From positions 4,397,414 to 4,461,413 of the forward strand of contig OZ252032.1 in assembly GCA_965247655.1 (NCBI GenBank): a stretch of 64,000 nt of DNA, written 5' to 3'. Source of the stretch: Candidatus Poribacteria bacterium (lineage in GTDB: Bacteria; Poribacteria; WGA-4E; PCPOR2b). Positions 10,578 through 43,510 of this stretch are shown here, one piece after another. How positions within the stretch are numbered: position 1 is the stretch's first letter; each line of letters opens with the position of its first letter. The position numbers and the translations under genes are program-made. The notes beneath the pieces were generated by a model. It had not been told where the DNA came from and did not search any database. It saw only the letters and a list, made by a program, of their open reading frames with translations.

Positions 10578-10994
10578 TTAAGGATTCGGCGGTGAGGTAC
10601 AGATGAGAACCTCCATCGTCTCATTTCCAGTGTTCTCGATGCCGTGTTCGCACCATGGTGGCAGATGGATAAAGGTGCCTTCCTGCACATCGACCTTCTC
10701 GCCGGCGAGCGTCATGACGCCTTCCCCGCGTATAACAACGTAGCACTCCTCGGTGTGGTGACTGCCCGGTTCTAGTACAACGTGCGGGGGGATATAGAAC
10801 ATGACCAATCCCAGATTCTCAGCGGGTGCCTTGGGGTTGGCGGGATGGACGACCCGCACACCAATCCCATCGCAACCGGGATATTTCACCGGCACACCAT
10901 CCTGCGCACTGACAACATTTGGCAGTACCTTTTCTCTTGGTTTGGGGAATGGTGGCTCGCCTTGGTAACCTGTGAACATTGTAATTTTTGCCAT
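10578..10994 (-). CDS. Cupin-domain protein
   Basis: SHHTEECYVVIRGEG and PPWCEHGIENTG cupin motifs. Confidence 0.88.
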   Translation of the reverse strand: MAKITMFTGYQGEPPFPKPREKVLPNVVSAQDGVPVKYPGCDGIGVRVVHPANPKAPAENLGLVMFYIPPHVVLEPGSHHTEECYVVIRGEGVMTLAGEKVDVQEGTFIHLPPWCEHGIENTGNETMEVLICTSPPNP

Positions 10995-11039
10995 TGTTGT
11001 TACCTCACTTTTGATGATAGTTGATATAACTCAAGTAGA

Positions 11040-11420
11040 ACGTGAAACGCAAGCGTGGGTTTCACTATCGCTCAACCCAACCTGATATAAAAACTAGAAG
11101 CAGTATTTTTCTCGATTTATCGTGCATGTCCCCAATACGACACACATGTCGCCCCGCTGGGGCTTTAGGGAATTTGGGTTGTTGATATTCTATACACATA
11201 TCGCCCCGCTGGGGCTTTAGATATGTTCTGCTATACACATCGCGCTCCTCCCCGATAAGATCGGGATTCAAAACTGGAGCGAAAGGCACATCAGCTTTAA
11301 TAGAAAACCGATGGATTTTCGGTGTCTAGTAACTTGGTTATGATAGCACAAGTCTCCAGTTATAATCAATGTAAAGCGGTAGAACGTGAAACGTGATGCG
11401 TAAAACGTGAGCATGGGTTG
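11040..11420. repeat. REP-like intergenic cluster
   Basis: gtgggtttcac..caacccaac, two gccccgctggggc copies, cccgataagatcggg, cgtgaaacgtgatgcgtaaaacgtga. Confidence 0.75.
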
Positions 11421-11470
11421 CACTATGGTTACGGCATACGGAGTATGCCTACTACTTTGGTGACACTTCC

Positions 11471-11839
11471 TCAACTTCTGATTGCCGCCCATAGGAGACA
11501 GCCCCAGCCGATGATAAAGGCGACTCCGCCGATTGGTGTTATCACACCGAGCCAGCGGACACCGGTTAATGATAGAATATAAAGGCTGCCCGAAAAAATA
11601 ACGATGCCTGCCACAAATAACCAGCCGGATGCGGCGATCAGTTGGCTGCTCCACTGTGACGCGGCCCAAGCCACGGCGATTAATCCCAACGCATGATACA
11701 TCTGATAGCGCGCAGCAATCTCAAAGGTTTGGAACATATCCGGTGATAGCCGTGTTTTCAGAGCGTGGGCAGCAAAGGCACCTGTTATCACAGCGATCAG
11801 CGCGAAGCCAGAGCCGAGCGCGAAAAAAAGGCGTTGCAT
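11471..11839 (-). CDS. DUF423 / YgdD-TMEM256 membrane protein
   Basis: GAFAAHAL, ARYQMYHAL, FSGSLY, ITPIGG. Confidence 0.92.
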   Translation of the reverse strand: MQRLFFALGSGFALIAVITGAFAAHALKTRLSPDMFQTFEIAARYQMYHALGLIAVAWAASQWSSQLIAASGWLFVAGIVIFSGSLYILSLTGVRWLGVITPIGGVAFIIGWGCLLWAAIRS

Positions 11840-11965
11840 ATCTTCTTCTCCTATAACCTTGCATAAATCAATCGTAAAGGAAGGGTTGAAATCCACGTTT
11901 ACACAGATACTCACAAAAGAACGCAGTCAACTCCAAACAGCAGAAAACCAGCTATTCAACGGCTT

Positions 11966-12832
11966 TCAAAATGGTGTATTTTCTCCCACCTCTAAATCTT
12001 CAGACAGTATTTCTGACTCGGCGTATTCTGAATCAGCCCCCTTCTCGTTCAGTGTGAGAGGCGGCTCAGGACTTTCGGGGACTTCACTGGTTTTTGCCGC
12101 AGCGTCCAGTTGCTGGATGCGCCCCACCAACTCCTTGAAAAGCTCTGGCGCGGAGGTACCGGCTTGTAATTCCGCAGAAAGCTGGGTCCACTGCATCTCA
12201 GTCATATCGTTACGGGATTCAACAGCGTAACGACGCTTCACATAGTTCCAAAAATCGGACTTTGTGATGCCCTGTTCTTCAAATTTGCCTTCCAACTTGC
12301 TAGCCATTGCAAATGCGGCTTTCTGTGCATTGGAAACCTTACTGGTCGCAGCTGCACTCGGCAAGCCCATCTGAGCCGTTTCCGCCCCTGCTTGTCGATG
12401 AAGGTAGAAATTCAGTACCTCTTTGATGACCGTAACGGGTAGCAGCTGTTTGACGGCGTTGCGCTGCGCTTTGTGGATCGCTTTCGTGAACGCATGGGGA
12501 TCCTCGCGATTGCCCATCCGTTTCGCCTGCTCATACGCCCCATACCGCGACGAGCCGGTTACCGTATCCGTCGCTTTGGCTATAACAAGCCAAGATTGGT
12601 CCCGCTCTTCGTAGTTCACATCATCAACCTGAATCCCGCCTCGGCGATTTGCGGCTTCGTTTATTCCCGCAAGCGTTAACCCCTCGACAGTCTTACCGCC
12701 TTGCTTAAATGAGTAGACATAATCTTGAATGGCTTGTCCCGTCATCATTTCAACAATCGCTTGGTCATCAACCTGATCTAAGACCTCGTAGTCCGCGACC
12801 GGAACAAGTTCATTTTTTGTATCTTCAGCCAT
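11966..12832 (-). CDS. Hypothetical protein, possible Rad52/Sak-like ssDNA annealing protein
   Basis: Beta-strand run followed by helix AFTKAIHKAQRNAVKQLLP; linker with SNAQ; acidic tail ending PF. Confidence 0.45.
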   Translation of the reverse strand: MAEDTKNELVPVADYEVLDQVDDQAIVEMMTGQAIQDYVYSFKQGGKTVEGLTLAGINEAANRRGGIQVDDVNYEERDQSWLVIAKATDTVTGSSRYGAYEQAKRMGNREDPHAFTKAIHKAQRNAVKQLLPVTVIKEVLNFYLHRQAGAETAQMGLPSAAATSKVSNAQKAAFAMASKLEGKFEEQGITKSDFWNYVKRRYAVESRNDMTEMQWTQLSAELQAGTSAPELFKELVGRIQQLDAAAKTSEVPESPEPPLTLNEKGADSEYAESEILSEDLEVGENTPF

Positions 12833-31925: not shown

Positions 31926-32142
31926 TAGTGATTTTGCTTGTTTGATATCTTGTTGTTGAATATAGTGTTGCATAAATTGCTCAAATAGTTGCATAATAAG
32001 AGAGACCTAATCGGTCAACATTGGCTTTGGTGTCATGGCGGGTCTCCCTTTTGTTGGGCTAACAATAGGAAACCCTCTTTGGCTGATTGTGTCAACTATA
32101 TTTTTGCACACTCTCTCTTAACTTGTATTAATAGGAATAGCC

Positions 32143-33132
32143 ATGCAACTTCCCCAACTTACACCGGATCAGATCCAACAACGCTGTACAGAGCAAAGTT
32201 TCACGCGCGGCTTAGACTACTTTCATGCCGGCGCAATTGACAATCCGGTCCTCCACGGCTACACCCTGTCAGCAACATGCGAGGGTACGGATATAGACCC
32301 GTATCGTGTCACTGTAGAATTAATGCCGACAGAGATCGCCTCCACCTACTGTTCGTGTCCATACGACTGGGGAGGAGATTGTAAACATATTGTCGCACTG
32401 CTATTGACCTATGTTCATGAGCCGGACGCCATTCTTTCCCTTGAACCCTTATTCGCCACACTTGAGGCAAAACCTAAGTCAAGCCTACTACAGGTCATTT
32501 CAGAATTGCTCAAACACGCACCCGAACTGGTTCCCATTGCTCAAGCATACTTAGACATTCCCGCCATCCCACTGGAGCCCGGACCGCTTCCACTCGTCAC
32601 AGCTTACCGGGAACAGATTGATAGCATCTTTGAGGATAGCTTTCTCGAACAGCACCACTTCCATCAGGTGATGGTTCAACTCGAAAGTCTGAGGCAGCAG
32701 GCGGAGTCACTCGCACAACTGGGTGAAACGGAACGTGCATTGTCAATTCTTCACGCGTTGATACATCAATCTATCGCGCGCTATTCCGACACGTCCCAGA
32801 CAAGCGAATTGCCATGGTTCGTCGATAAATGCACGCAGGCATTCACACAAATCGTCGTAAACGCGCAAGAGCCAGTTGAAATCCTTGAACACTGCCAAAT
32901 GCTGTTGCGACTGAGTTTTGATGCGGAACAGGTCTTCACACCACTTCTGACATATTTCCTAGAACAGCTCTGTTTGACGCAAGATCTAGCGGACCTAGAA
33001 ACAGCGATTGAACAAGATCTTGATGAGAGTCCAGATCGACAGGCGCATGTTCGGCTCCTGCTTGCATTGGATTTTCAATCCGGCCAGACTGAAGATTACC
33101 TCAGGCTCGTCCAATCCGAAGAGGAGGGATAG
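32143..33132 (+). CDS. SWIM zinc-finger protein, probably 3'-truncated
   Basis: RGLDYF, CSCPYDWGGDCKHIVALLL; frame reads on past the TAG (QLIHALFAG). Confidence 0.8.
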   Translation: MQLPQLTPDQIQQRCTEQSFTRGLDYFHAGAIDNPVLHGYTLSATCEGTDIDPYRVTVELMPTEIASTYCSCPYDWGGDCKHIVALLLTYVHEPDAILSLEPLFATLEAKPKSSLLQVISELLKHAPELVPIAQAYLDIPAIPLEPGPLPLVTAYREQIDSIFEDSFLEQHHFHQVMVQLESLRQQAESLAQLGETERALSILHALIHQSIARYSDTSQTSELPWFVDKCTQAFTQIVVNAQEPVEILEHCQMLLRLSFDAEQVFTPLLTYFLEQLCLTQDLADLETAIEQDLDESPDRQAHVRLLLALDFQSGQTEDYLRLVQSEEEG

Positions 33133-33246
33133 CAGCTGATACACGCTCTGTTTGCAGGGGAGAAATCGTCATTACGAAGCATTGAGGTATTCAACTGCGT
33201 AAGCTCTTACATTATTTCAGTAGTTTGCTTTATGAGCACTCCTTAG

Positions 33247-35154
33247 TTAATTTTGTAGAGTGATTTGAGTGGATAAAACTTCGATGAGTTCGTTCAAGTG
33301 AACATGTCGAAAAAACTCCGAAAGCCGCTTCTGTTTCGGTTTAATCGGGAGCAAGATAAAATCTGAACGATCTTCTTGGAGGTATTCAAACACCTTGCGA
33401 TACGCTTGGCTTGTGGCATATCCGACAACCAAAGTATAGTGATCACTGTGCTTATCAAGATAGGCTTTGAATCGATCCGCACCCAACTGGATCTGCGCGG
33501 TATTTCTGGGGGACAACTGGAAATCATAGCGCACGACAGGCTCCTCAGATTCAAACTCTTCTGGTACTGGACCATAGAGTCCGGAGAGAGTTATTTTGTG
33601 AATCGCGCGTTGATTGTTCCCAAAGGCATTTTGTAGTTTGGTGTTGATGATAGTATGTGTACGCGAAAGTGAATATGGCTTTTTTCCTGCACAGGGAATT
33701 GCCAAAAGAACCTTTTTATCCTGCGGAGGTTTGTAATCTGCTGGAATGGAAAAGGAATCAGGTGTATAATCCAGTGAAATCGTCGGTTGTTCTTTCTGAA
33801 GAGCTGAATCTGTTTCTTTTGTTGAAAATGCCGGAAAAAGTTCCAATTGATAGGGATTACTCTTGGCCGTACGCCGGTTTTCTGGCGTGGAGATACCAAC
33901 GACGGTCTTTGCCATACGATTAGCAAACTCTTTATTATTCTCCATCAACCAATCCACTGCCCTACGGATGCCTCGCCCTGCTGAAGCATGATGGACTAAC
34001 TCTTCGAGTGCCTCATCGGCTTCAATAGCGTCCTTCATACGAGACAACAGCCCCGCTTCCAACTCGAAATTATGCAAGGCGATCGCCGCATAACATTCGC
34101 TCTTGTATTTTCCGGTCGAAGTCCGCTTATAGCTTACCTCTTCCATTAAAGTGCGTTGCATCTCATCAAGGGAAACCTCCCGGCAGATGCGGCAAGTACA
34201 GGTCAGTTCGTCCAATTCCATCAGTTTCCGTTTTGTTCGTGTTAACGGATCGGAATAGCTGAGTCCACGTGCTGCTTGAATGTAGCTGGTGCTATCAAAG
34301 CTATCGACACCCATGTAAGTCAGTATAGGTGCCAGTTCACCGGAGACACCGAAAGCGTGGATGGGGGTATGGTGCCGCTCTGACGCTGGGATCGCTTTTT
34401 GAACTCCGCAGATTCGCTCAAGTATTGCTGCATCCTGTTTCCCCCGCAATGGGACTAAAGAGCCTACCGCGAGGCCAAATGAGGGCAGCACACCTAAAAG
34501 CCGGTCAAAGACCTGCCTAACATAGTTCTCAATATCCGATTGGGATTGTCCATGACAGCAAACGTATAAAAAGGGTGGTTGTGCTTTGGCTGCAAGTAAT
34601 GTAGCTACGCGACAGGCATTCTCCAGACTTAGGTTCATCCGTTTCTCAGCTTCGGAGCGTTCCAAACCCGGGGGTAGCGGATAATCTAAAGAAGCGATAA
34701 TTTCGCCCCCAAAATCTTCTTGAAGCGCGAAAATGTCATCGGCTTCGGTTTCCTTTTCAATTCCAAATTTCTTTAGGTCTAACCCTGCCTTGTAAAGCAG
34801 CTTAAATCCACCGGAGTCAAGAAATAGTGGGGCATTATAGACACCGTTTACCTCTTGATACCATTCACGCACTGTTTTTTGACGCCACTTGCTTAAATGT
34901 TTTCCCTCCAACGGAAAGTCCAGAAAGTGCAAGACTTGGGATAGCGTCGGGACATCGTGCTTCATCAAATCACGGAGCAGGTACTTCCAAAGACCTCCTC
35001 CGCGTGGAGTTGAACCAGTCAAAAATGAAACCACCGGATACAGTATCGGCGTTGCTAGAGGTGGTAAGACTTCGCCATTGCGTTGCAAACGAAGTTCACC
35101 GGTTCTGCCGCCTTTTCTCTGAACGATTGTATGGTAAGTTGGGATTGTGTTCAT
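33247..35154 (-). CDS. tRNA-guanine transglycosylase-fold protein fused to ArcS/DUF5591-like domain
   Basis: LFLDSGGF, SLDYP, AVGSLVP, IHAFG, GVDSFDS, CTCRIC..ALHN; C-terminal IPCAGKKPYSLSRTH..SGLYGPVPEEFE. Confidence 0.8.
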   Translation of the reverse strand: MNTIPTYHTIVQRKGGRTGELRLQRNGEVLPPLATPILYPVVSFLTGSTPRGGGLWKYLLRDLMKHDVPTLSQVLHFLDFPLEGKHLSKWRQKTVREWYQEVNGVYNAPLFLDSGGFKLLYKAGLDLKKFGIEKETEADDIFALQEDFGGEIIASLDYPLPPGLERSEAEKRMNLSLENACRVATLLAAKAQPPFLYVCCHGQSQSDIENYVRQVFDRLLGVLPSFGLAVGSLVPLRGKQDAAILERICGVQKAIPASERHHTPIHAFGVSGELAPILTYMGVDSFDSTSYIQAARGLSYSDPLTRTKRKLMELDELTCTCRICREVSLDEMQRTLMEEVSYKRTSTGKYKSECYAAIALHNFELEAGLLSRMKDAIEADEALEELVHHASAGRGIRRAVDWLMENNKEFANRMAKTVVGISTPENRRTAKSNPYQLELFPAFSTKETDSALQKEQPTISLDYTPDSFSIPADYKPPQDKKVLLAIPCAGKKPYSLSRTHTIINTKLQNAFGNNQRAIHKITLSGLYGPVPEEFESEEPVVRYDFQLSPRNTAQIQLGADRFKAYLDKHSDHYTLVVGYATSQAYRKVFEYLQEDRSDFILLPIKPKQKRLSEFFRHVHLNELIEVLSTQITLQN

Positions 35155-35266
35155 AGCACGATGTTTTCTCGTTAGTCCATTTACGCATTAACAATGCAGT
35201 GGGATTGAGCGGAAGTTATTCTGCTTATCAAATCTATAGTTCTTTGATGCAATTAGTTTTGCATTC

Positions 35267-35884
35267 TCAAAGGGACGGAAAAATGAATTGTTTGAGAAAA
35301 GTGGTTCTTGCATAAAACGCTCTCGTTGTACTGCCATGTCCCCTACCTTTGGTTCTTGGCTGAATATACACTCCCATTTTTCCAGTTAAAGTAGAAAACC
35401 CCGTTGTACGAATAGTTTCCCTCACCAAGTCATAATCGGCTTTGATTTGATCGTAGATAGCAGAATCATCTAAATCGAAGGTTGTCACAATGTAGAGTAT
35501 CGATTGCTTTTCTTCTCTGCTCTCCCAAATTCTGGCAGCGACGATTAGCTTACTCAATTTAGCTAATAAGTGGCTATTTTCAAAATCAGTACTTTCAACA
35601 TTGTAGGGATCAATCATCGTAATTGACATTGTTTCTTTGACTGTCAAGTCACCACTTCTTAGATATTTCAGAGGAACAACCTTTAGTTCCCACGAACCAA
35701 AATTGGGAGATTGGGAGGAATTAATGGGTAAGTTAAGATGGCACTCAAGAACGTGCCCGGCCCAACCTTTGTTCGGTTTACCTTCTTTGAAAACCGTTAC
35801 TTGGTATTTATCAGCGAAAAGCCGTAGGTCTTTTCCGATAAGCTCGGACAATTTTGAGAGCGCTTCCTGTCTTTCCATATCCAA
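35267..35884 (-). CDS. MutH/Sau3AI/MvaI-like endonuclease, single domain
   Basis: NKGWAGHVLE, SPNFGSWELK, KETMSIT, IKADY, GVYIQPRTKG, RAFYAR. Confidence 0.82.
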   Translation of the reverse strand: MDMERQEALSKLSELIGKDLRLFADKYQVTVFKEGKPNKGWAGHVLECHLNLPINSSQSPNFGSWELKVVPLKYLRSGDLTVKETMSITMIDPYNVESTDFENSHLLAKLSKLIVAARIWESREEKQSILYIVTTFDLDDSAIYDQIKADYDLVRETIRTTGFSTLTGKMGVYIQPRTKGRGHGSTTRAFYARTTFLKQFIFPSL

Positions 35885-35906
35885 TTCCTTTATAACGAAT
35901 ACCTAA

Positions 35907-36908
35907 TTACTTCTCGGCTAGCTCATCAAGCCTCTTTTGAGCAATCTGGTTATACGATTCTTCTTTCTCAATCATCACCCATTTTCGGTTCTGTTTTTCC
36001 GCGACGACCCCGGTCGTCCCAGTCCCTGAGAACGGATCGAGAATCAGATCATCTTCATTGGTTCCCGCCAAAACGAGCCGTTCGACGACTTTGAGCGGCT
36101 TCTGCGAGGGGTGTTTCCCATATCTTCGTTCCGAAGGTTTAATCAGCGGAATTTCCCACATATTTCGCATCTGTTTGTTATTATTCATCGCCTTCATCGT
36201 TTGATAATTGAACGTCCAATTCTTTGCCTTTTTACTTTCATTGTTGACCGTCCATAGGATGAACTCAGTAGACTCGGTAAACATTCGACAGGTAATATTG
36301 GGCTGTGCATTCGGTTTATACCAGACAATTTGAGTGATAATCCGCCGGTCAAATATATTTTGTAGAATAAACCCAAGCGTAAAGATGCTGTGGAACGAGC
36401 CGAAAACAAAGATATTCCCGTTTGGCTTGACAACTCTCAGGACTTCAGTGACCCAATCGAGTGTAAACTGGAAATATTCGTCTTTTGAGAAAATATCCCA
36501 ACCTTCCTGCATGGTAATATGGGAACTAAACGCCCAGCCCAACCCCTTCTTTTGAGATATATTGAACGGTGGATCCGCGATGCAGCAATCGAAGACAGTG
36601 TCCGGCAAAGAAGGCAGAATACTGAGACAATCGCCGCATAAAATCTGCTTGACAGGCAAATTCTCAAATGAAGAATCCGGGAATAAGGTGAGCACGTCTT
36701 CTGATAAAACTGTCTGTATCTGATTTTCTGACGCAACTGTACATTCCGCTTCCGGATCTGAATCGAGCACAGTTTTCGGTTGAAGTGGATGGACTTCCGT
36801 TGTAAGATATTGAATCAATTGGGCTTTATTCAGGGATGAGTATCGTCTTAATCCACGTTTTTTCGCCTCTTTCCTCAGATCTTTGTATCGCATATGATCA
36901 AAGCTCAT
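35907..36908 (-). CDS. Beta-class amino-DNA methyltransferase (DpnA-like) with N-terminal Rho-N/SAP-like domain
   Basis: ADPPFN (motif IV) precedes LDPFSGTGTT (motif I); KPNAQPNITCR, KQMRNMW, GKHPSQKP; N-term KDLRKEAKKRGLRRYSSLNKAQLI. Confidence 0.9.
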   Translation of the reverse strand: MSFDHMRYKDLRKEAKKRGLRRYSSLNKAQLIQYLTTEVHPLQPKTVLDSDPEAECTVASENQIQTVLSEDVLTLFPDSSFENLPVKQILCGDCLSILPSLPDTVFDCCIADPPFNISQKKGLGWAFSSHITMQEGWDIFSKDEYFQFTLDWVTEVLRVVKPNGNIFVFGSFHSIFTLGFILQNIFDRRIITQIVWYKPNAQPNITCRMFTESTEFILWTVNNESKKAKNWTFNYQTMKAMNNNKQMRNMWEIPLIKPSERRYGKHPSQKPLKVVERLVLAGTNEDDLILDPFSGTGTTGVVAEKQNRKWVMIEKEESYNQIAQKRLDELAEK

Positions 36909-37061
36909 TGGTTTTCACTCCTTCAATTTCTTGATAGGCAAATCAATCTGTTGATACAGTATTTTCGTTACTTCCTCGCTTACTACTAACGCTTCTTTAT
37001 CCAACACCATGAGCTAGGCATCTCGCTCTACTTCAAGAAAAACCATACCACGAAATCCATC

Positions 37062-38657
37062 CTATGCCCGTCGCAGGACGTGCCCACTACGCTCCCCGGT
37101 CAACTCCCCATCTTTCACAGCTACTTTTCCATTGACGATGACATGGTGCATACCGATGGCGGTCTGGTTGGGCTCAAAGGTGGTGCCCTGATCCGCGAAA
37201 GCCACCGGATCGAAAATTGCCACATCCGCCCACGCCCCCTTGCGAAGGACACCCCGATCGGTTAAACCGAGTCGGTTGGCTGGCAGCAACGTGATCCGGC
37301 GGACAGCCTCTTGCGGACTGAGGGTCTTTTTGTCGCACACAAAATGCTGATAAAACCAAGATGCCCATGTGTACGCGCCGTGGAACGATGTGCCTGCTAA
37401 AGGTCCGTCAGTCGCCAACGCGGTGGCGTCGGAGCCAACCATGCAACCGGGATGCTCAAAGGCGATGCGAATATCCTCTTCCCGATAGGTGAAGGCGAGA
37501 ATCATCAGGCTGTGGAGGTCGTCGATCTCAGCGAGCAAGAGGTTGTAGATAGTGTCGAACGGGTCAACGCCCGTCAATTCGCTGACTTCAGCGATGCTCT
37601 TTCGGGAAAATTCGGGATGCGCTCTGCTGTCAAAGAGGACGATGTTGTTCCAATCACCCCGTGCTAGAGCGGTGATGATACTGGGATAGGTTTTCAACTC
37701 TCGGCGGGTGGCAGCTGACTGTAGGCGTACGGCGATGGCGGTTGTATCCCCCTCTAGCACCCAAGGCGGCAAGGCAGCACTCAGATTGGTGGTTCCGAAC
37801 AAGCGTGTGTGCATATCAAAACCGACATCTAACCCACGATCCTGTGCCTCGTCAACCTGCCTGAGCGCATCTTCGATTGCCCCCCGTCCATCTTCAGCCA
37901 GCCGCGAGACCACGGAGATGTGGGAGATCTGTAGAGGTAGGTTCGATGCAGCCCCGGTCCGGATTGCCTCCGCGATGGTTTCCTGCGCCTCCCCGTCCCG
38001 ATTGCGGGTATGAGTTGCATAGAATCCGCCGGCATCAGATGCTACTCGACAGAGTTCAATGATCTCCGCTTCCGTACAGTCTCTCTCAGGTCCGTATTCG
38101 AGACCTGTGGAAAAGCCGAACGCCCCTTCCTCTAGGCTCTGTGTCAGCAGGTTTTTCATCTGCCTAAGTTCATCCGGTGTTGAGGGACGATCCACCAATC
38201 CGGCGACGGCGAGGCGTAGGTTGCCGTTCGGAACGAGGGAAGCCACGTTGACCGTTGGCTTGCCCACTTCAAGAGATTCGAGGTATTCAGCCATGGTGCG
38301 CCAGCCGATCTCGTGCCCTTCTTGGTGCCCGTAGATGTTCATCTTTGCCAATTCCGGGTCGCCGATGGGCGCACACCCGTGACCACAGTTGCCAACGACT
38401 TCGAGCGTCACGCCTTGGGTTATTGAGCTCAGTGCCCGTGGATCGACGATTATTGTGAAATCGGAATGGCTGTGGATATCAATGAAGCCGGGTGCGACAA
38501 AGAGACCTTGGGCATCCAAGCACGGTACACCCTCCTGTTTTTCGATCGTCCCAATGTCGAGGATTCTGCCATCTTTGATTGCCACGCCCCCACGAAAAGG
38601 TGGGGATCCTGTGCCATCAATAACGGTCCCGCTGTGAATCAGGAGATCAGCCTGCAT
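37062..38657 (-). CDS. N-acyl-D-amino-acid deacylase
   Basis: PGFIDIHSHSD, GNCG, GFSTGLEY, GSD, ADVAIFDP. Confidence 0.9.
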   Translation of the reverse strand: MQADLLIHSGTVIDGTGSPPFRGGVAIKDGRILDIGTIEKQEGVPCLDAQGLFVAPGFIDIHSHSDFTIIVDPRALSSITQGVTLEVVGNCGHGCAPIGDPELAKMNIYGHQEGHEIGWRTMAEYLESLEVGKPTVNVASLVPNGNLRLAVAGLVDRPSTPDELRQMKNLLTQSLEEGAFGFSTGLEYGPERDCTEAEIIELCRVASDAGGFYATHTRNRDGEAQETIAEAIRTGAASNLPLQISHISVVSRLAEDGRGAIEDALRQVDEAQDRGLDVGFDMHTRLFGTTNLSAALPPWVLEGDTTAIAVRLQSAATRRELKTYPSIITALARGDWNNIVLFDSRAHPEFSRKSIAEVSELTGVDPFDTIYNLLLAEIDDLHSLMILAFTYREEDIRIAFEHPGCMVGSDATALATDGPLAGTSFHGAYTWASWFYQHFVCDKKTLSPQEAVRRITLLPANRLGLTDRGVLRKGAWADVAIFDPVAFADQGTTFEPNQTAIGMHHVIVNGKVAVKDGELTGERSGHVLRRA

Positions 38658-42107: not shown

Positions 42108-43510
42108 TTGACATACTCCCCGCCCTAAAGGACGGGGATTCTTTTGATGTCCTTTAGTGACGTGAATTGTGCTATCAACAAAGTTAGCCACCCGAAGATG
42201 GTCTTACAACTTCTCCTTCAAGGGTTGATGCCCCAACCCGAAAAATGTTAATTGCTGCGTTTCTATCTCTATCATGGGTGGTGCAACAATCAGTACACTG
42301 CCATGTCCTATCACGCAAGTTCAACACTTCATTCACAGTGCCACAAACTGAGCAAGTCTTAGACGAAGGATACCACTTATCAATGAAAGTGATTTTGACA
42401 CCCTTTTTGGAAGCAATATATACCAACTTTTTAACGAAATCGGCAAAACCTAAGTCACTGACCTTGCGTCCCCAAAGGGCTTTCATGCCTGTGAGGTTCA
42501 AATCCTCAAGACGTATTTCGTCGTATAGGTCCGTGAGCTCGTGTGCAAGTTTCCAGTGGAAGTCCTCTCGTTGGTTGCCTATCTTACGATGTTTGCGTGC
42601 TAAATCAAGTCTTGCCCGTTCACGGTTCTTTGACCTTTTCTTGGTTCGTAAATGGTTACGATTGGCACGTTTGATAGCGTTGATACTGCGTTTGAAAAAC
42701 TGTGGCGATTCTATATCATGTCCATTTGACCCGGTGAGATACCTGTTTAGACCAAAATCGAAGCCTGCGATTTTACCCGTCATGACTCGATTGAGGTCAG
42801 GTTCTACATAGTCAGTTAGCACACAGATATAGACATCGCCAATGGCGTCCCGCTTGATAGTGCAACGCTTGGGATTGCCTTCAATATTACGGGACTTAAA
42901 ATACTGATAGACGCACTTGCCAATACGAATCTTGTTACCCGGTAGAAGTTTCCACCCGGCCTGTAGTAATGTAAATGACTTATATTGACGACGTGGCTTG
43001 AAACGAGGCCTGCCCCATTTCTTACCTTTGGTTCTGGCTTCAAACATTGCCTGGTAGCCTTTATCAATTCGGGCTGCTACGTCCTGTATTGCTTGACTCG
43101 GTAGTTCATTCCAATGGGCAAACTTGGGAAGCCTTTTCAGTTTGGATATGTGGTTAATCAACCTAAACTTGCTGATATATTTGCCGTAGATAGCATAGTA
43201 CCGACGCTGAAGGGCTACGCAATGATTCCACACCTGAGCGTGTTCATCTATCGTTTTATGCAGTTCACGATTACCGTGATTAGAATACAACCTAAACTTG
43301 TAGGTTTTCATGGGATTTGTCCTTTGTCCTTCAACCTGTTTCACGAGGAAGCGGGAGACCCTATCGTGCAATAGGGGTGAAACTCTCCCGCGAAGGACAA
43401 AAGAAGCATACCATATTTTACCTACAATTTCAACCGTTTTTAGACGTTAACACAAGGAGCCAATCTGTATCCCCGCCTTGAAAGACGGGGTTTTAGATTG
43501 GAAGATTTTG
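42108..43510 (-). mobile_element. IS200/IS605-family TnpB-only element
   Basis: Subterminal hairpins ccccg..cgggg at ~42117-42137 and ~43470-43490; right end ..GTCAA; TTAT next to the putative left end; no tnpA. Confidence 0.8.
42184..43311 (-). CDS. tnpB: RNA-guided endonuclease TnpB
   Basis: KTYKFRLY, GFDFG (RuvC-I), LEDL (RuvC-II), SSKTCSVCG..CTDC, DRDRNAAINI (RuvC-III). Confidence 0.95.
   Translation of the reverse strand: MKTYKFRLYSNHGNRELHKTIDEHAQVWNHCVALQRRYYAIYGKYISKFRLINHISKLKRLPKFAHWNELPSQAIQDVAARIDKGYQAMFEARTKGKKWGRPRFKPRRQYKSFTLLQAGWKLLPGNKIRIGKCVYQYFKSRNIEGNPKRCTIKRDAIGDVYICVLTDYVEPDLNRVMTGKIAGFDFGLNRYLTGSNGHDIESPQFFKRSINAIKRANRNHLRTKKRSKNRERARLDLARKHRKIGNQREDFHWKLAHELTDLYDEIRLEDLNLTGMKALWGRKVSDLGFADFVKKLVYIASKKGVKITFIDKWYPSSKTCSVCGTVNEVLNLRDRTWQCTDCCTTHDRDRNAAINIFRVGASTLEGEVVRPSSGG

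Follow-up and report, generated by a model that had tools for sequence, protein, structure and literature searches.

What does a bacterium do with a gene that joins the catalytic barrel of a tRNA-guanine transglycosylase (TGT) to the core domain of an archaeosine synthase (ArcS)? Such a gene lies at positions 33247..35154 (minus strand) of a 64,000-nucleotide stretch of a Candidatus Poribacteria genome (assembly GCA_965247655.1, contig OZ252032.1, positions 4,397,414 to 4,461,413), referred to below as the window, and the open reading frame (ORF) list, the translation, Pfam and an AlphaFold model agree in giving it a TGT barrel, a linker and a DUF5591 domain. The protein belongs to a real, well-conserved and uncharacterised family. 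Its likeliest place is in DNA modification systems of the Dpd-like kind, as a module in which a DpdA-type and an ArcS-type part are fused, and here it stands as an orphan. We consider it reasonably likely that this one chain would insert 7-cyano-7-deazaguanine (preQ0) into DNA and then convert its nitrile, the substrate and product being what we infer from the evidence below.

The ORF is intact, begins with ATG and codes for 635 residues. Two Pfam domains exceed their gathering thresholds, TGT (PF01702) over residues 106-387 (51.7 bits against 26.3) and DUF5591 (PF17884) over residues 473-595 (57.5 bits against 26), and the scan gave no further domain at E <= 1, neither a PUA domain nor the C2 and PUA RNA-binding domains that form the C-terminus of ArcS. 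The chain continues for only some 40 residues beyond DUF5591, and the AlphaFold2 model (pLDDT 91.9, pTM 0.90, with an alignment of 39 sequences as input) assigns them to the same domain. In this model residues 1-420 (33895..35154; this and all features of the gene are on the minus strand) form a TGT (beta/alpha)8 barrel with a zinc subdomain and a helical extension, identified by Pfam and by its best solved match, PDB entry 1iq8. A disordered linker of varying length in the family covers residues 422-452 (33799..33891; pLDDT < 50), and a compact alpha/beta domain covers residues 455-635 (33250..33792), recognised as DUF5591, the ArcS C1 core, by Pfam, by its own model and by its match to 2q07.

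The barrel carries DSGGF (residues 113-117; 34804..34818), SLDYP (155-159; 34678..34692), HGQ at the Gln-Gly position of tRNA TGTs (201-203; 34546..34554), GVDSFDS with the presumed nucleophile Asp (282-288; 34291..34311) and a zinc site C319-x-C321-x2-C324...H361, made up of CTCRIC 319-324 and ALHN 359-362 (34069..34200). The second domain contains PCAGKKPYSLSRTH (residues 487-500; 33655..33696), which is an exact instance of the ArcS C1 motif PC-X3-KPY-X2-S-X2-H, and SGLYGPVPEE (524-533; 33556..33585), a second conserved DUF5591 motif that hhalign makes the counterpart of LSAxxG in DUF6884. A sequence-only reading of the same DNA had quoted all of these motifs, the linker and the lack of a PUA domain, and each was found as it stated.

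The closest solved structure to the barrel is the archaeosine TGT (ArcTGT) of Pyrococcus (PDB ID: 1iq8), whether searched by sequence (phmmer E 3.5e-12), by family profile (E 2.4e-34) or by structure (Foldseek E 5.4e-20). In the alignment with 1iq8, D113 of DSGGF coincides with the catalytic Asp95, SLDYP with the LDIP motif so that D157 is the counterpart of the base-binding Asp130, GVDSFDS with GVDLFDS and its D287 with Asp249, and the Cys cluster with CSCPVC, so that C319, C321, C324 and H361 correspond to the structural CxCx2C...H zinc site. The Gln-Gly pair with which ArcTGT and bacterial Tgt read the base is absent, and His201-Gly202 stands in its place. In DpdA of S. Montevideo, according to PMC10164549, the pair is His181-Gly182, His181 and Asp130 bond the base, and the catalytic residues are Asp95, as the general acid/base, and Asp256; H201-G202, D113, D157 and D287 match this pair and the Asp95/Asp130/Asp256 triad, in a comparison made through the ArcTGT alignment and not with DpdA directly. 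When haloarchaeal ArcS and ArcTGT sequences are aligned with the family, D284 and D287 are invariant, the ArcTGTs have Gln where the fusion proteins have His, and the ArcS barrel is shortened and degenerate, without the HG and GSLVP regions and with a long C2/PUA tail, whereas the fusion family retains a full-length barrel with His-Gly. As aligned, the pocket is in the state of DpdA, a DNA transglycosylase, and it is because of this pocket, together with the Dpd-like context and ancestry described below, that the substrate of the fusion enzyme is probably DNA.

The same comparisons provide the case for the most serious alternative, that the protein is a bacterial enzyme for tRNA or another RNA, a compact ArcTGT and ArcS in one chain which places preQ0 at an RNA guanine and makes an archaeosine-like base. 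None of the curated equivalog cut-offs is reached: the protein scores 90.8 bits with ArcS (NF040592, cut-off 440), 75.4 bits with TgtA/ArcTGT (TIGR00432, cut-off 350), 24.4 bits with the bacterial queuine/preQ1 Tgt model Q_tRNA_tgt (TIGR00430, cut-off 306.75) and 23 bits with DpdA (NF041059, cut-off 200). It is above the cut-off only of the broader NCBIfam tgt_general (58.3 against 47.6 bits), and the PADLOC DpdA model (PDLC02807) gives 22.2 bits (E 1.3e-5). The top curated models and structures (ArcS, TgtA and 1iq8) are thus those of tRNA enzymes, and a tRNA role stays a live rival because these hidden Markov model (HMM) scores lie nearer to ArcTGT, because the Poribacteria copies stand without restriction partners and because a paralogue sits amid housekeeping genes. 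The Joint Genome Institute (JGI) names three of the close homologues 7-cyano-7-deazaguanine tRNA-ribosyltransferase, in keeping with an RNA role, and ArcS accepts short RNAs and mononucleotides (PMC11298593). The His-Gly pocket, which is that of DpdA and not the Gln-Gly of the aligned haloarchaeal ArcTGTs, speaks against it, as do the island partners and the patchy distribution given below and the loss of both RNA-binding domains, C2 and PUA. The missing PUA domain had earlier been taken to fit a non-tRNA substrate; the absence stands, and is weak evidence by itself because the PUA domain of ArcTGT is reportedly dispensable (to go by the title of Sabina and Soll 2006). The protein is in any case not nested among ordinary bacterial queuine TGTs, as its Q_tRNA_tgt score and the separate canonical Tgt of this genome attest. 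Taken together, we consider the RNA alternative unlikely.

The second domain, folded separately (pLDDT 92.7), matches AF0587 (PDB ID: 2q07) with Z 16.5 and a root-mean-square deviation of 2.3 A over 136 residues, the runner-up being at Z 8.1. Against viral structural models the match in second place is Vibrio phage nt-1's DUF5591 protein (E 1.9e-5, TMq 0.62), and lower in the same list stand a phage YaaA (E 1.1e-3) and several phage DUF6884 proteins. With the Pfam score, the AF0587 and phage nt-1 matches bear out the proposal that this half is a true DUF5591/ArcS core. When the fusion family was compared by hhalign with a 12-sequence alignment of DUF6884 the probability was 88.9% (E 2.4e-6), with PCSxxKPY paired with SCSKSK and LSGLYGPVP with LSAKHGLI. 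In the account of its Pfam authors, DUF6884 carries the motifs CxxxK and LSAxxG, is distantly related to YaaA and has a site predicted to flip bases (PMC11701544), and DpdC, which converts 2'-deoxy-preQ0 (dPreQ0) to dADG (2'-deoxy-7-amido-7-deazaguanosine) on DNA, is placed in the YaaA Pfam family PF03883 (PMC12839542). The DUF6884 protein of the islands described below matches the PADLOC DpdC model (E 1.4e-5). DUF5591 appears to group with DUF6884, itself more weakly tied to YaaA/DpdC, because of the hhalign match, the DUF6884-YaaA relation, the PADLOC DpdC match and the phage YaaA model; YaaA itself (PDB ID: 5caj) was not among the 50 structure matches listed for the domain, and the tie to YaaA/DpdC is drawn through hhalign to DUF6884, the DpdC match of DUF6884 and the phage model. 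Both enzymes characterised so far, ArcS and DpdC, act on the preQ0 nitrile within a nucleic acid. As a separate observation, UDG, MUG, UdgX, SMUG2 and TDG of the uracil-DNA-glycosylase superfamily match the domain at Z 6.3-7.2, below AF0587, which may reflect a mere shared arrangement.

In ArcS, a TGT-like N-terminal domain is followed by C1 (DUF5591, with PC-X3-KPY-X2-S-X2-H), C2 and PUA (PMC10516641 and PMC5699537). The fusion is the ArcS layout cut after C1 and not a new join of ArcTGT to ArcS, because ArcS itself consists of a TGT-like domain and DUF5591. The earlier description of a TGT fused to an archaeosine-synthase-like domain therefore holds as to the two domains, both of which are real, and needs amending as to their origin: to judge by its residues, this is an ArcS-type layout without C2 and PUA and with a catalytically complete barrel.

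The architecture is not peculiar to the window. A word-indexed search found 415 relatives, with both Pfam domains in 119 of 120 among the matches listed, and an exhaustive search of representatives at 50% identity found 654 at E <= 0.001, including 104 at E <= 1e-30. Both domains were present in 56 of the 68 representatives of at least 440 residues, and a PUA match (E <= 0.001) in none of the 68. Across an alignment of 39 members with 30-68% identity to the query, D113, D157, P159, H201, G231-S232, H266, G282, D287, C321, C324 and H361-N362 of the barrel are invariant, as are P493, Y494, G525, G528 and P531 of DUF5591, and G202, C319, C488, K492 and S497 are conserved in 90% or more. The fusion architecture is far beyond chance, since it recurs among the 654 representatives and its motifs are invariant or nearly so in the 39 members. 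In a quick maximum-likelihood tree (LG+G4, rooted on ArcTGT, with support from the Shimodaira-Hasegawa-like approximate likelihood ratio test, SH-aLRT, only) the fusion family forms a single clade of its own (58 rows, support 96), from which the second TGT of the islands, the short haloarchaeal TGTs and a third TGT of the Poribacteria are excluded. Within the family the 17 Poribacteria rows form a clade (SH-aLRT 99) that branches from among clades with Dpd context.

The open-access full texts that were searched yielded no description of a cellular TGT-DUF5591 fusion, and in them DUF5591 is named only in the phage ArcS2 study; tables supplementing PMC10516641 and PMC12839542 might contain proteins of this kind. 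Automatic labels in the wider set include 'DpdA', given by the Atlas to a TGT/DUF6884 cluster. PHROGs gave marginal matches only (E 1e-3), and we set aside a phage origin of the fusion, as a family-alignment scan of viral contigs yielded no fused form. Two variant architectures were seen besides: P0194 (600 residues) joins a TGT barrel to a Schlafen AlbA_2 domain, and P0155 (880 residues) has two DUF5591 stretches.

The neighbours of the wider family are those of DNA restriction and modification. At 80 metagenome loci, ORFs were clustered by BLAST and one representative was annotated per cluster; among the fetched loci, 70, in 25 identity groups, lie outside the Poribacteria-like group. The partners counted were DpdJ-, DpdK- or DpdH-like proteins, a GHKL ATPase, DUF6884, a second TGT, QueC/D/E and a preQ0 transporter. 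At least one was found at 63 of the 70 loci (24 of 25 groups), with DpdJ/K/H-like neighbours at 28 loci (15 groups) and QueC/QueD/QueE-like genes or YhhQ at 24 loci (10 groups). The recurrent core of the islands consists of the fusion gene (about 660 residues), DUF6884 (158 residues), a second TGT (415 residues) and a GHKL ATPase (about 525 residues), to which QueC (187 bits, above cut-off), a QueE-like radical S-adenosylmethionine (SAM) protein and QueD are often added. A DEAD helicase of about 1300 residues matches DpdJ (195 bits) and is accompanied by a PLD-like DpdK (E 2e-7); other groups have an ATPase resembling DpdH (E 7e-18), HerA/NurA/UvrD, or YhhQ, the transporter of queuosine precursor (138 bits, above cut-off). 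A ParB-like DpdB was not seen in the islands, which have a GHKL or STAND ATPase instead. That 24 of 25 identity groups outside the Poribacteria adjoin DNA helicases, nucleases, ATPases or preQ0 supply genes argues against a tRNA role. It also argues against a third possibility, that the enzyme serves a free nucleotide, nucleoside or small-molecule pathway and makes a 7-deazapurine metabolite and no polymer mark, as the partners are helicases and nucleases and not biosynthetic tailoring enzymes.

DISARM genes, Pbe genes and integrases also occur near fusion islands. Two of the islands (L097:2496-6204 and L067:880-2970) adjoin PbeA/PbeC (540 and 720 bits) and DISARM DrmB (268 bits), neighbours typical of defence islands. 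Genes for TFIIB and Cdc6 at some loci identify those loci as archaeal. Two haloarchaeal loci (L030:3906-11028 and L031:7779-12580) have a short His-Gly TGT (341-346 residues) with a BrxC/D-like ATPase and DUF6884 proteins, and the second of them contains a 563-residue TGT-DUF6884 fusion (10889-12580) that parallels the TGT-DUF5591 fusion.

Among reference genomes, 26 of the 27 close loci belong to Poribacteria, where the gene is accessory: it was present in 39 of 121 sampled genomes of the phylum, which break down unevenly by genus, with 10 carriers out of 13 in the host's own genus and 0 out of 32 in another. This patchy presence is a further point against a tRNA enzyme, as is the host genome's own equipment of a canonical Tgt (553 bits to Pfam TGT) and QueA, beside which it also has QueC; vertical inheritance inside the Poribacteria clade, with copies free of restriction partners, would suit such an enzyme. 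The host genome has a second fusion paralogue of 615 residues, 65-68% identical, preceded at a distance of one base by a gene that resembles QueD and is divergent (35 bits with the QueD model), a link that is kept in locus L026 despite an otherwise different context. The only partner retained in these bacteria is a DNA methylase for the window copy, as described below, and the QueD-like gene for the paralogue.

The metabolite alternative finds its support here. The paralogue is coupled to an extra QueD-like gene, though the genome has another tandem PTPS at a different place, an aminomutase of the KamA family follows the paralogue 2.5 kb downstream, and ArcS can use the preQ0 nucleoside 5'-monophosphate (PMC11298593). 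The link to the aminomutase is confined to Poribacteria synteny and lost in L026, and the characterised TGT-superfamily members named in PMC5699537 and PMC10164549 all exchange bases of polynucleotides. We consider this alternative improbable. The KamA-family gene (L042:12463-13524), the only radical SAM gene nearby and close to AblA lysine 2,3-aminomutase (477 bits, cut-off 525), is syntenic with the paralogue across Poribacteria and of interest in its own right since ArcS uses lysine, though an independent link was not found. That it stands in for RaSEA or supplies beta-lysine is kept only as a lead, because the gene is tied to the paralogue by that synteny only and is missing in L026.

The paralogue of one related genome of the Poribacteria is interrupted by a split or a frameshift (L028:7860-9882; two tblastn segments, with an internal TAG). 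This damage, and the stripping of island partners from the Poribacteria copies, are what would be expected if the protein were non-catalytic, a reader of 7-deazaguanine-modified nucleic acid, for instance a sensor surviving from a defence island that has decayed. Throughout the family, both copies of the host genome included, the catalytic Asp pair, the zinc ligands and the Cys and Lys of DUF5591 are invariant or nearly so, and the window copy is an intact ORF that folds at pLDDT 91.9; of the alternatives we give this one the least credence, and think it very improbable. The host genome has in addition a third TGT, short and with His-Gly, beside a BrxD-like ATPase, a PIN protein and a DUF6884 protein. 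This is part of a separate candidate system outside the window (L043:4415-11684; G000:C1:5071414-5078683), comprising DUF6884 (148 residues), two small unknown ORFs, an IS4/5 transposase, a PIN_4 protein, a 306-residue unknown, the BrxD-like ATPase (389 residues), the TGT (399 residues, with weak DpdA matches) and an EEP-family nuclease.

In the window, the fusion gene lies behind a pair of genes on the same strand that resembles a type II restriction-modification (R-M) system. The nearer is a MutH/Sau3AI-like type II restriction endonuclease (35267..35884, minus strand; Pfam MutH; PADLOC REase_II E 1.4e-12), which scores 68.6 bits with the NCBIfam Sau3AI family, below the cut-off of 300, and the farther is an N6/N4 (CcrM-like) DNA methyltransferase (35907..36908, minus strand; Pfam N6_N4_Mtase 174.9 bits; PADLOC MTase_II E 1.1e-75). 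The methylase is found upstream of the fusion gene at 11 of the 15 loci of the window-copy clade (clade A, with the window counted), in three different flanking contexts. The MutH/Sau3AI-like endonuclease occurs at just three loci including the window, and a DUF6996/6997 type II endonuclease takes its place at two others. These recurrences are not independent evidence, because all the genomes are close kin, and a functional tie between the endonuclease and the fusion gene is putative only. Over the fusion gene and the R-M pair (32001-36000) the GC content falls to 0.467 and 0.448, with 0.50-0.55 on both sides, a hint that the segment may have been acquired.

Four metatranscriptome libraries or runs (two studies) contain contigs that match the gene with 92-99% identity over 20 to 30 of its 30 bins, which is compatible with transcription of the fusion gene and no proof of it; one contig spans the endonuclease/fusion junction, again no proof of a common transcript. 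A scan of 32900-37200 found nine promoter-like sites (shuffles 6.0 +/- 2.2) and one terminator-like site (4.2 +/- 1.9) and is uninformative on operon structure. A connection with the TGT-GNAT 'BRC' systems (PMC12839542), suggested by GNAT neighbours at some of the Poribacteria loci, was considered and dropped, the sole GNAT with a match being RimI (119 bits, above cut-off). Two other neighbours deserve mention. A SWIM zinc-finger protein (32143-33132, plus strand; PADLOC candidate PDC-S62, E 1.6e-9) is convergent with the fusion gene and lies beside it only here and in L004, and 7 kb upstream there is an IS605-type TnpB/Cas12f-like ORF of 395 residues (42184-43371, minus strand), related copies of which adjoin the paralogue in L021 and lie near L017 and L007.

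Putting these elements together, the barrel would act in a first step as do DpdA and ArcTGT, with Asp113 as acid/base and the Asp of GVDSFDS as nucleophile, exchanging a guanine for preQ0 from the cell's own Que pathway while Asp157 and His201-Gly202 read the base. Insertion of preQ0 is suggested by the conserved residues, and the ArcTGT-like GSLVP loop fits a pocket of the preQ0 type. In a second step the tethered DUF5591 domain would act like ArcS and the phage protein ArcS2, attacking the nitrile of the inserted preQ0 through Cys488/Lys492. The order, insertion and then decoration, would follow from ArcS requiring at least the preQ0 nucleoside and not using the free base (PMC11298593). The expected product is an amidine-type base, either 2'-deoxyarchaeosine (dG+) or a lysine adduct, an amide being less likely; the same paper reports lysine transfer with a need for RaSEA in T. 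kodakarensis ArcS and the use of ammonium, Asn or Gln in M. jannaschii ArcS. Co-expression of DpdA2 and ArcS of phage nt-1 gives dG+ in E. coli plasmid DNA (PMC10516641). The sequence-only reading had already proposed one-chain insertion and decoration on a substrate other than tRNA; the His-Gly pocket and the Dpd-like islands with their preQ0 supply lend weight to this, with the substrate and product still at the level of prediction. As to origin, the family may have been the modification arm of Dpd-like R-M islands, of which the Poribacteria copies would have lost the helicase, nuclease and ATPase partners to become orphan modification genes, akin to orphan methylases, with the window copy placed behind a type II R-M pair.

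Several observations weigh against this DNA reading. The barrel is closer to ArcTGT than to DpdA, both by HMM (75.4 vs 23 bits) and by profile against PDB entries (E 2.4e-34 vs 3.5e-4), and ArcTGT and ArcS are enzymes of tRNA. None of the 39 Poribacteria-like loci, the window copy included, has a DpdJ/K/H-like, Que/YhhQ or other Dpd-like partner cluster, and in the host genome the DpdJ model finds one generic helicase match of 37 bits, which is uninformative because the same model gives matches in 12 of 14 unrelated control genomes. The methylase adjacency is confined to close relatives and may be inherited synteny, and the paralogue sits amid the housekeeping genes Pth, RsgA and ArgD. The neighbour labels in the wider family depend on a single representative per BLAST cluster, and viral contigs yielded just three weak matches, to the TGT part only.

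A wider proposal, which we put forward tentatively and with more doubt than confidence, is that the family is an undescribed and widespread bacterial and archaeal branch of Dpd-like systems in which a single chain writes dG+ or a lysine adduct in chromosomal DNA, and that Poribacteria have shed the restriction arm and keep one or two copies of the enzyme, now an epigenetic writer without partners that may protect the symbiont's genome against nucleases, whether its own or those of its neighbours. If true, a cellular DpdA-type/ArcS-type fusion would be new chemistry for host R-M systems and would allow DNA to be labelled site-specifically with deazaguanine by means of one compact gene, and proteins now named after a tRNA enzyme would need re-annotation. 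The islands offer a testable new defence-system layout, with the fusion gene, DUF6884, a second TGT, a GHKL ATPase, a DpdJ/K-like helicase and nuclease and QueC/D/E, and in sponge symbionts orphan hypermodification could account for part of the resistance to foreign nucleases.

How does the fusion compare with known systems? It resembles ArcS in the identical order of its parts (TGT-like and then C1/DUF5591), in the exact motif and in the AF0587 match at Z 16.5, and differs in lacking the C2/PUA tail, in scoring 90.8 bits against a cut-off of 440 and in its complete barrel, where that of haloarchaeal ArcS is shortened and without HG and GSLVP; ArcS by itself, moreover, inserts no base. ArcTGT (1iq8) is the best match to the barrel, with equivalents of Asp95, Asp130 and Asp249, the CxCx2C...H zinc site and a GGVVP loop that GSLVP resembles. 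It differs in having Gln and not His in the pocket, in a spacer of 22 residues from the third Cys to the His where the fusion has 36, and in having C1, C2 and PUA where the fusion has DUF5591 in place of C1 and neither of the others; the score of 75.4 bits is far from the cut-off of 350.

The known cellular 7-deazaguanine marks in DNA are dPreQ0 and dADG, made by separate DpdA, DpdB and DpdC proteins. The Dpd system, which has DpdA, DpdB, DpdC and the restriction proteins DpdD-K, shares with the fusion the His-Gly and Asp pair seen in S. Montevideo DpdA; relatives of the fusion have preQ0 genes and proteins resembling DpdJ, DpdK and DpdH at their flanks, and its second domain would belong with DUF6884, distantly related to YaaA, to whose family PF03883 DpdC is assigned. 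The fusion protein stands apart in its DpdA score (23 bits against 200), in having its nitrile-acting module fused and of ArcS type where Dpd has a free DpdC, and, in the window, in the lack of restriction partners. To our knowledge dG+ in DNA occurs only in phages, and an amidine-type mark otherwise only in archaeal tRNA. A further parallel is the pair DpdA2 and ArcS2 of Vibrio phage nt-1, which likewise combine a transglycosylase with a PUA-less DUF5591 core, the activities of the fusion being those predicted above; in the phage they are two separate proteins, whereas in the cellular genomes described here they form one chain.

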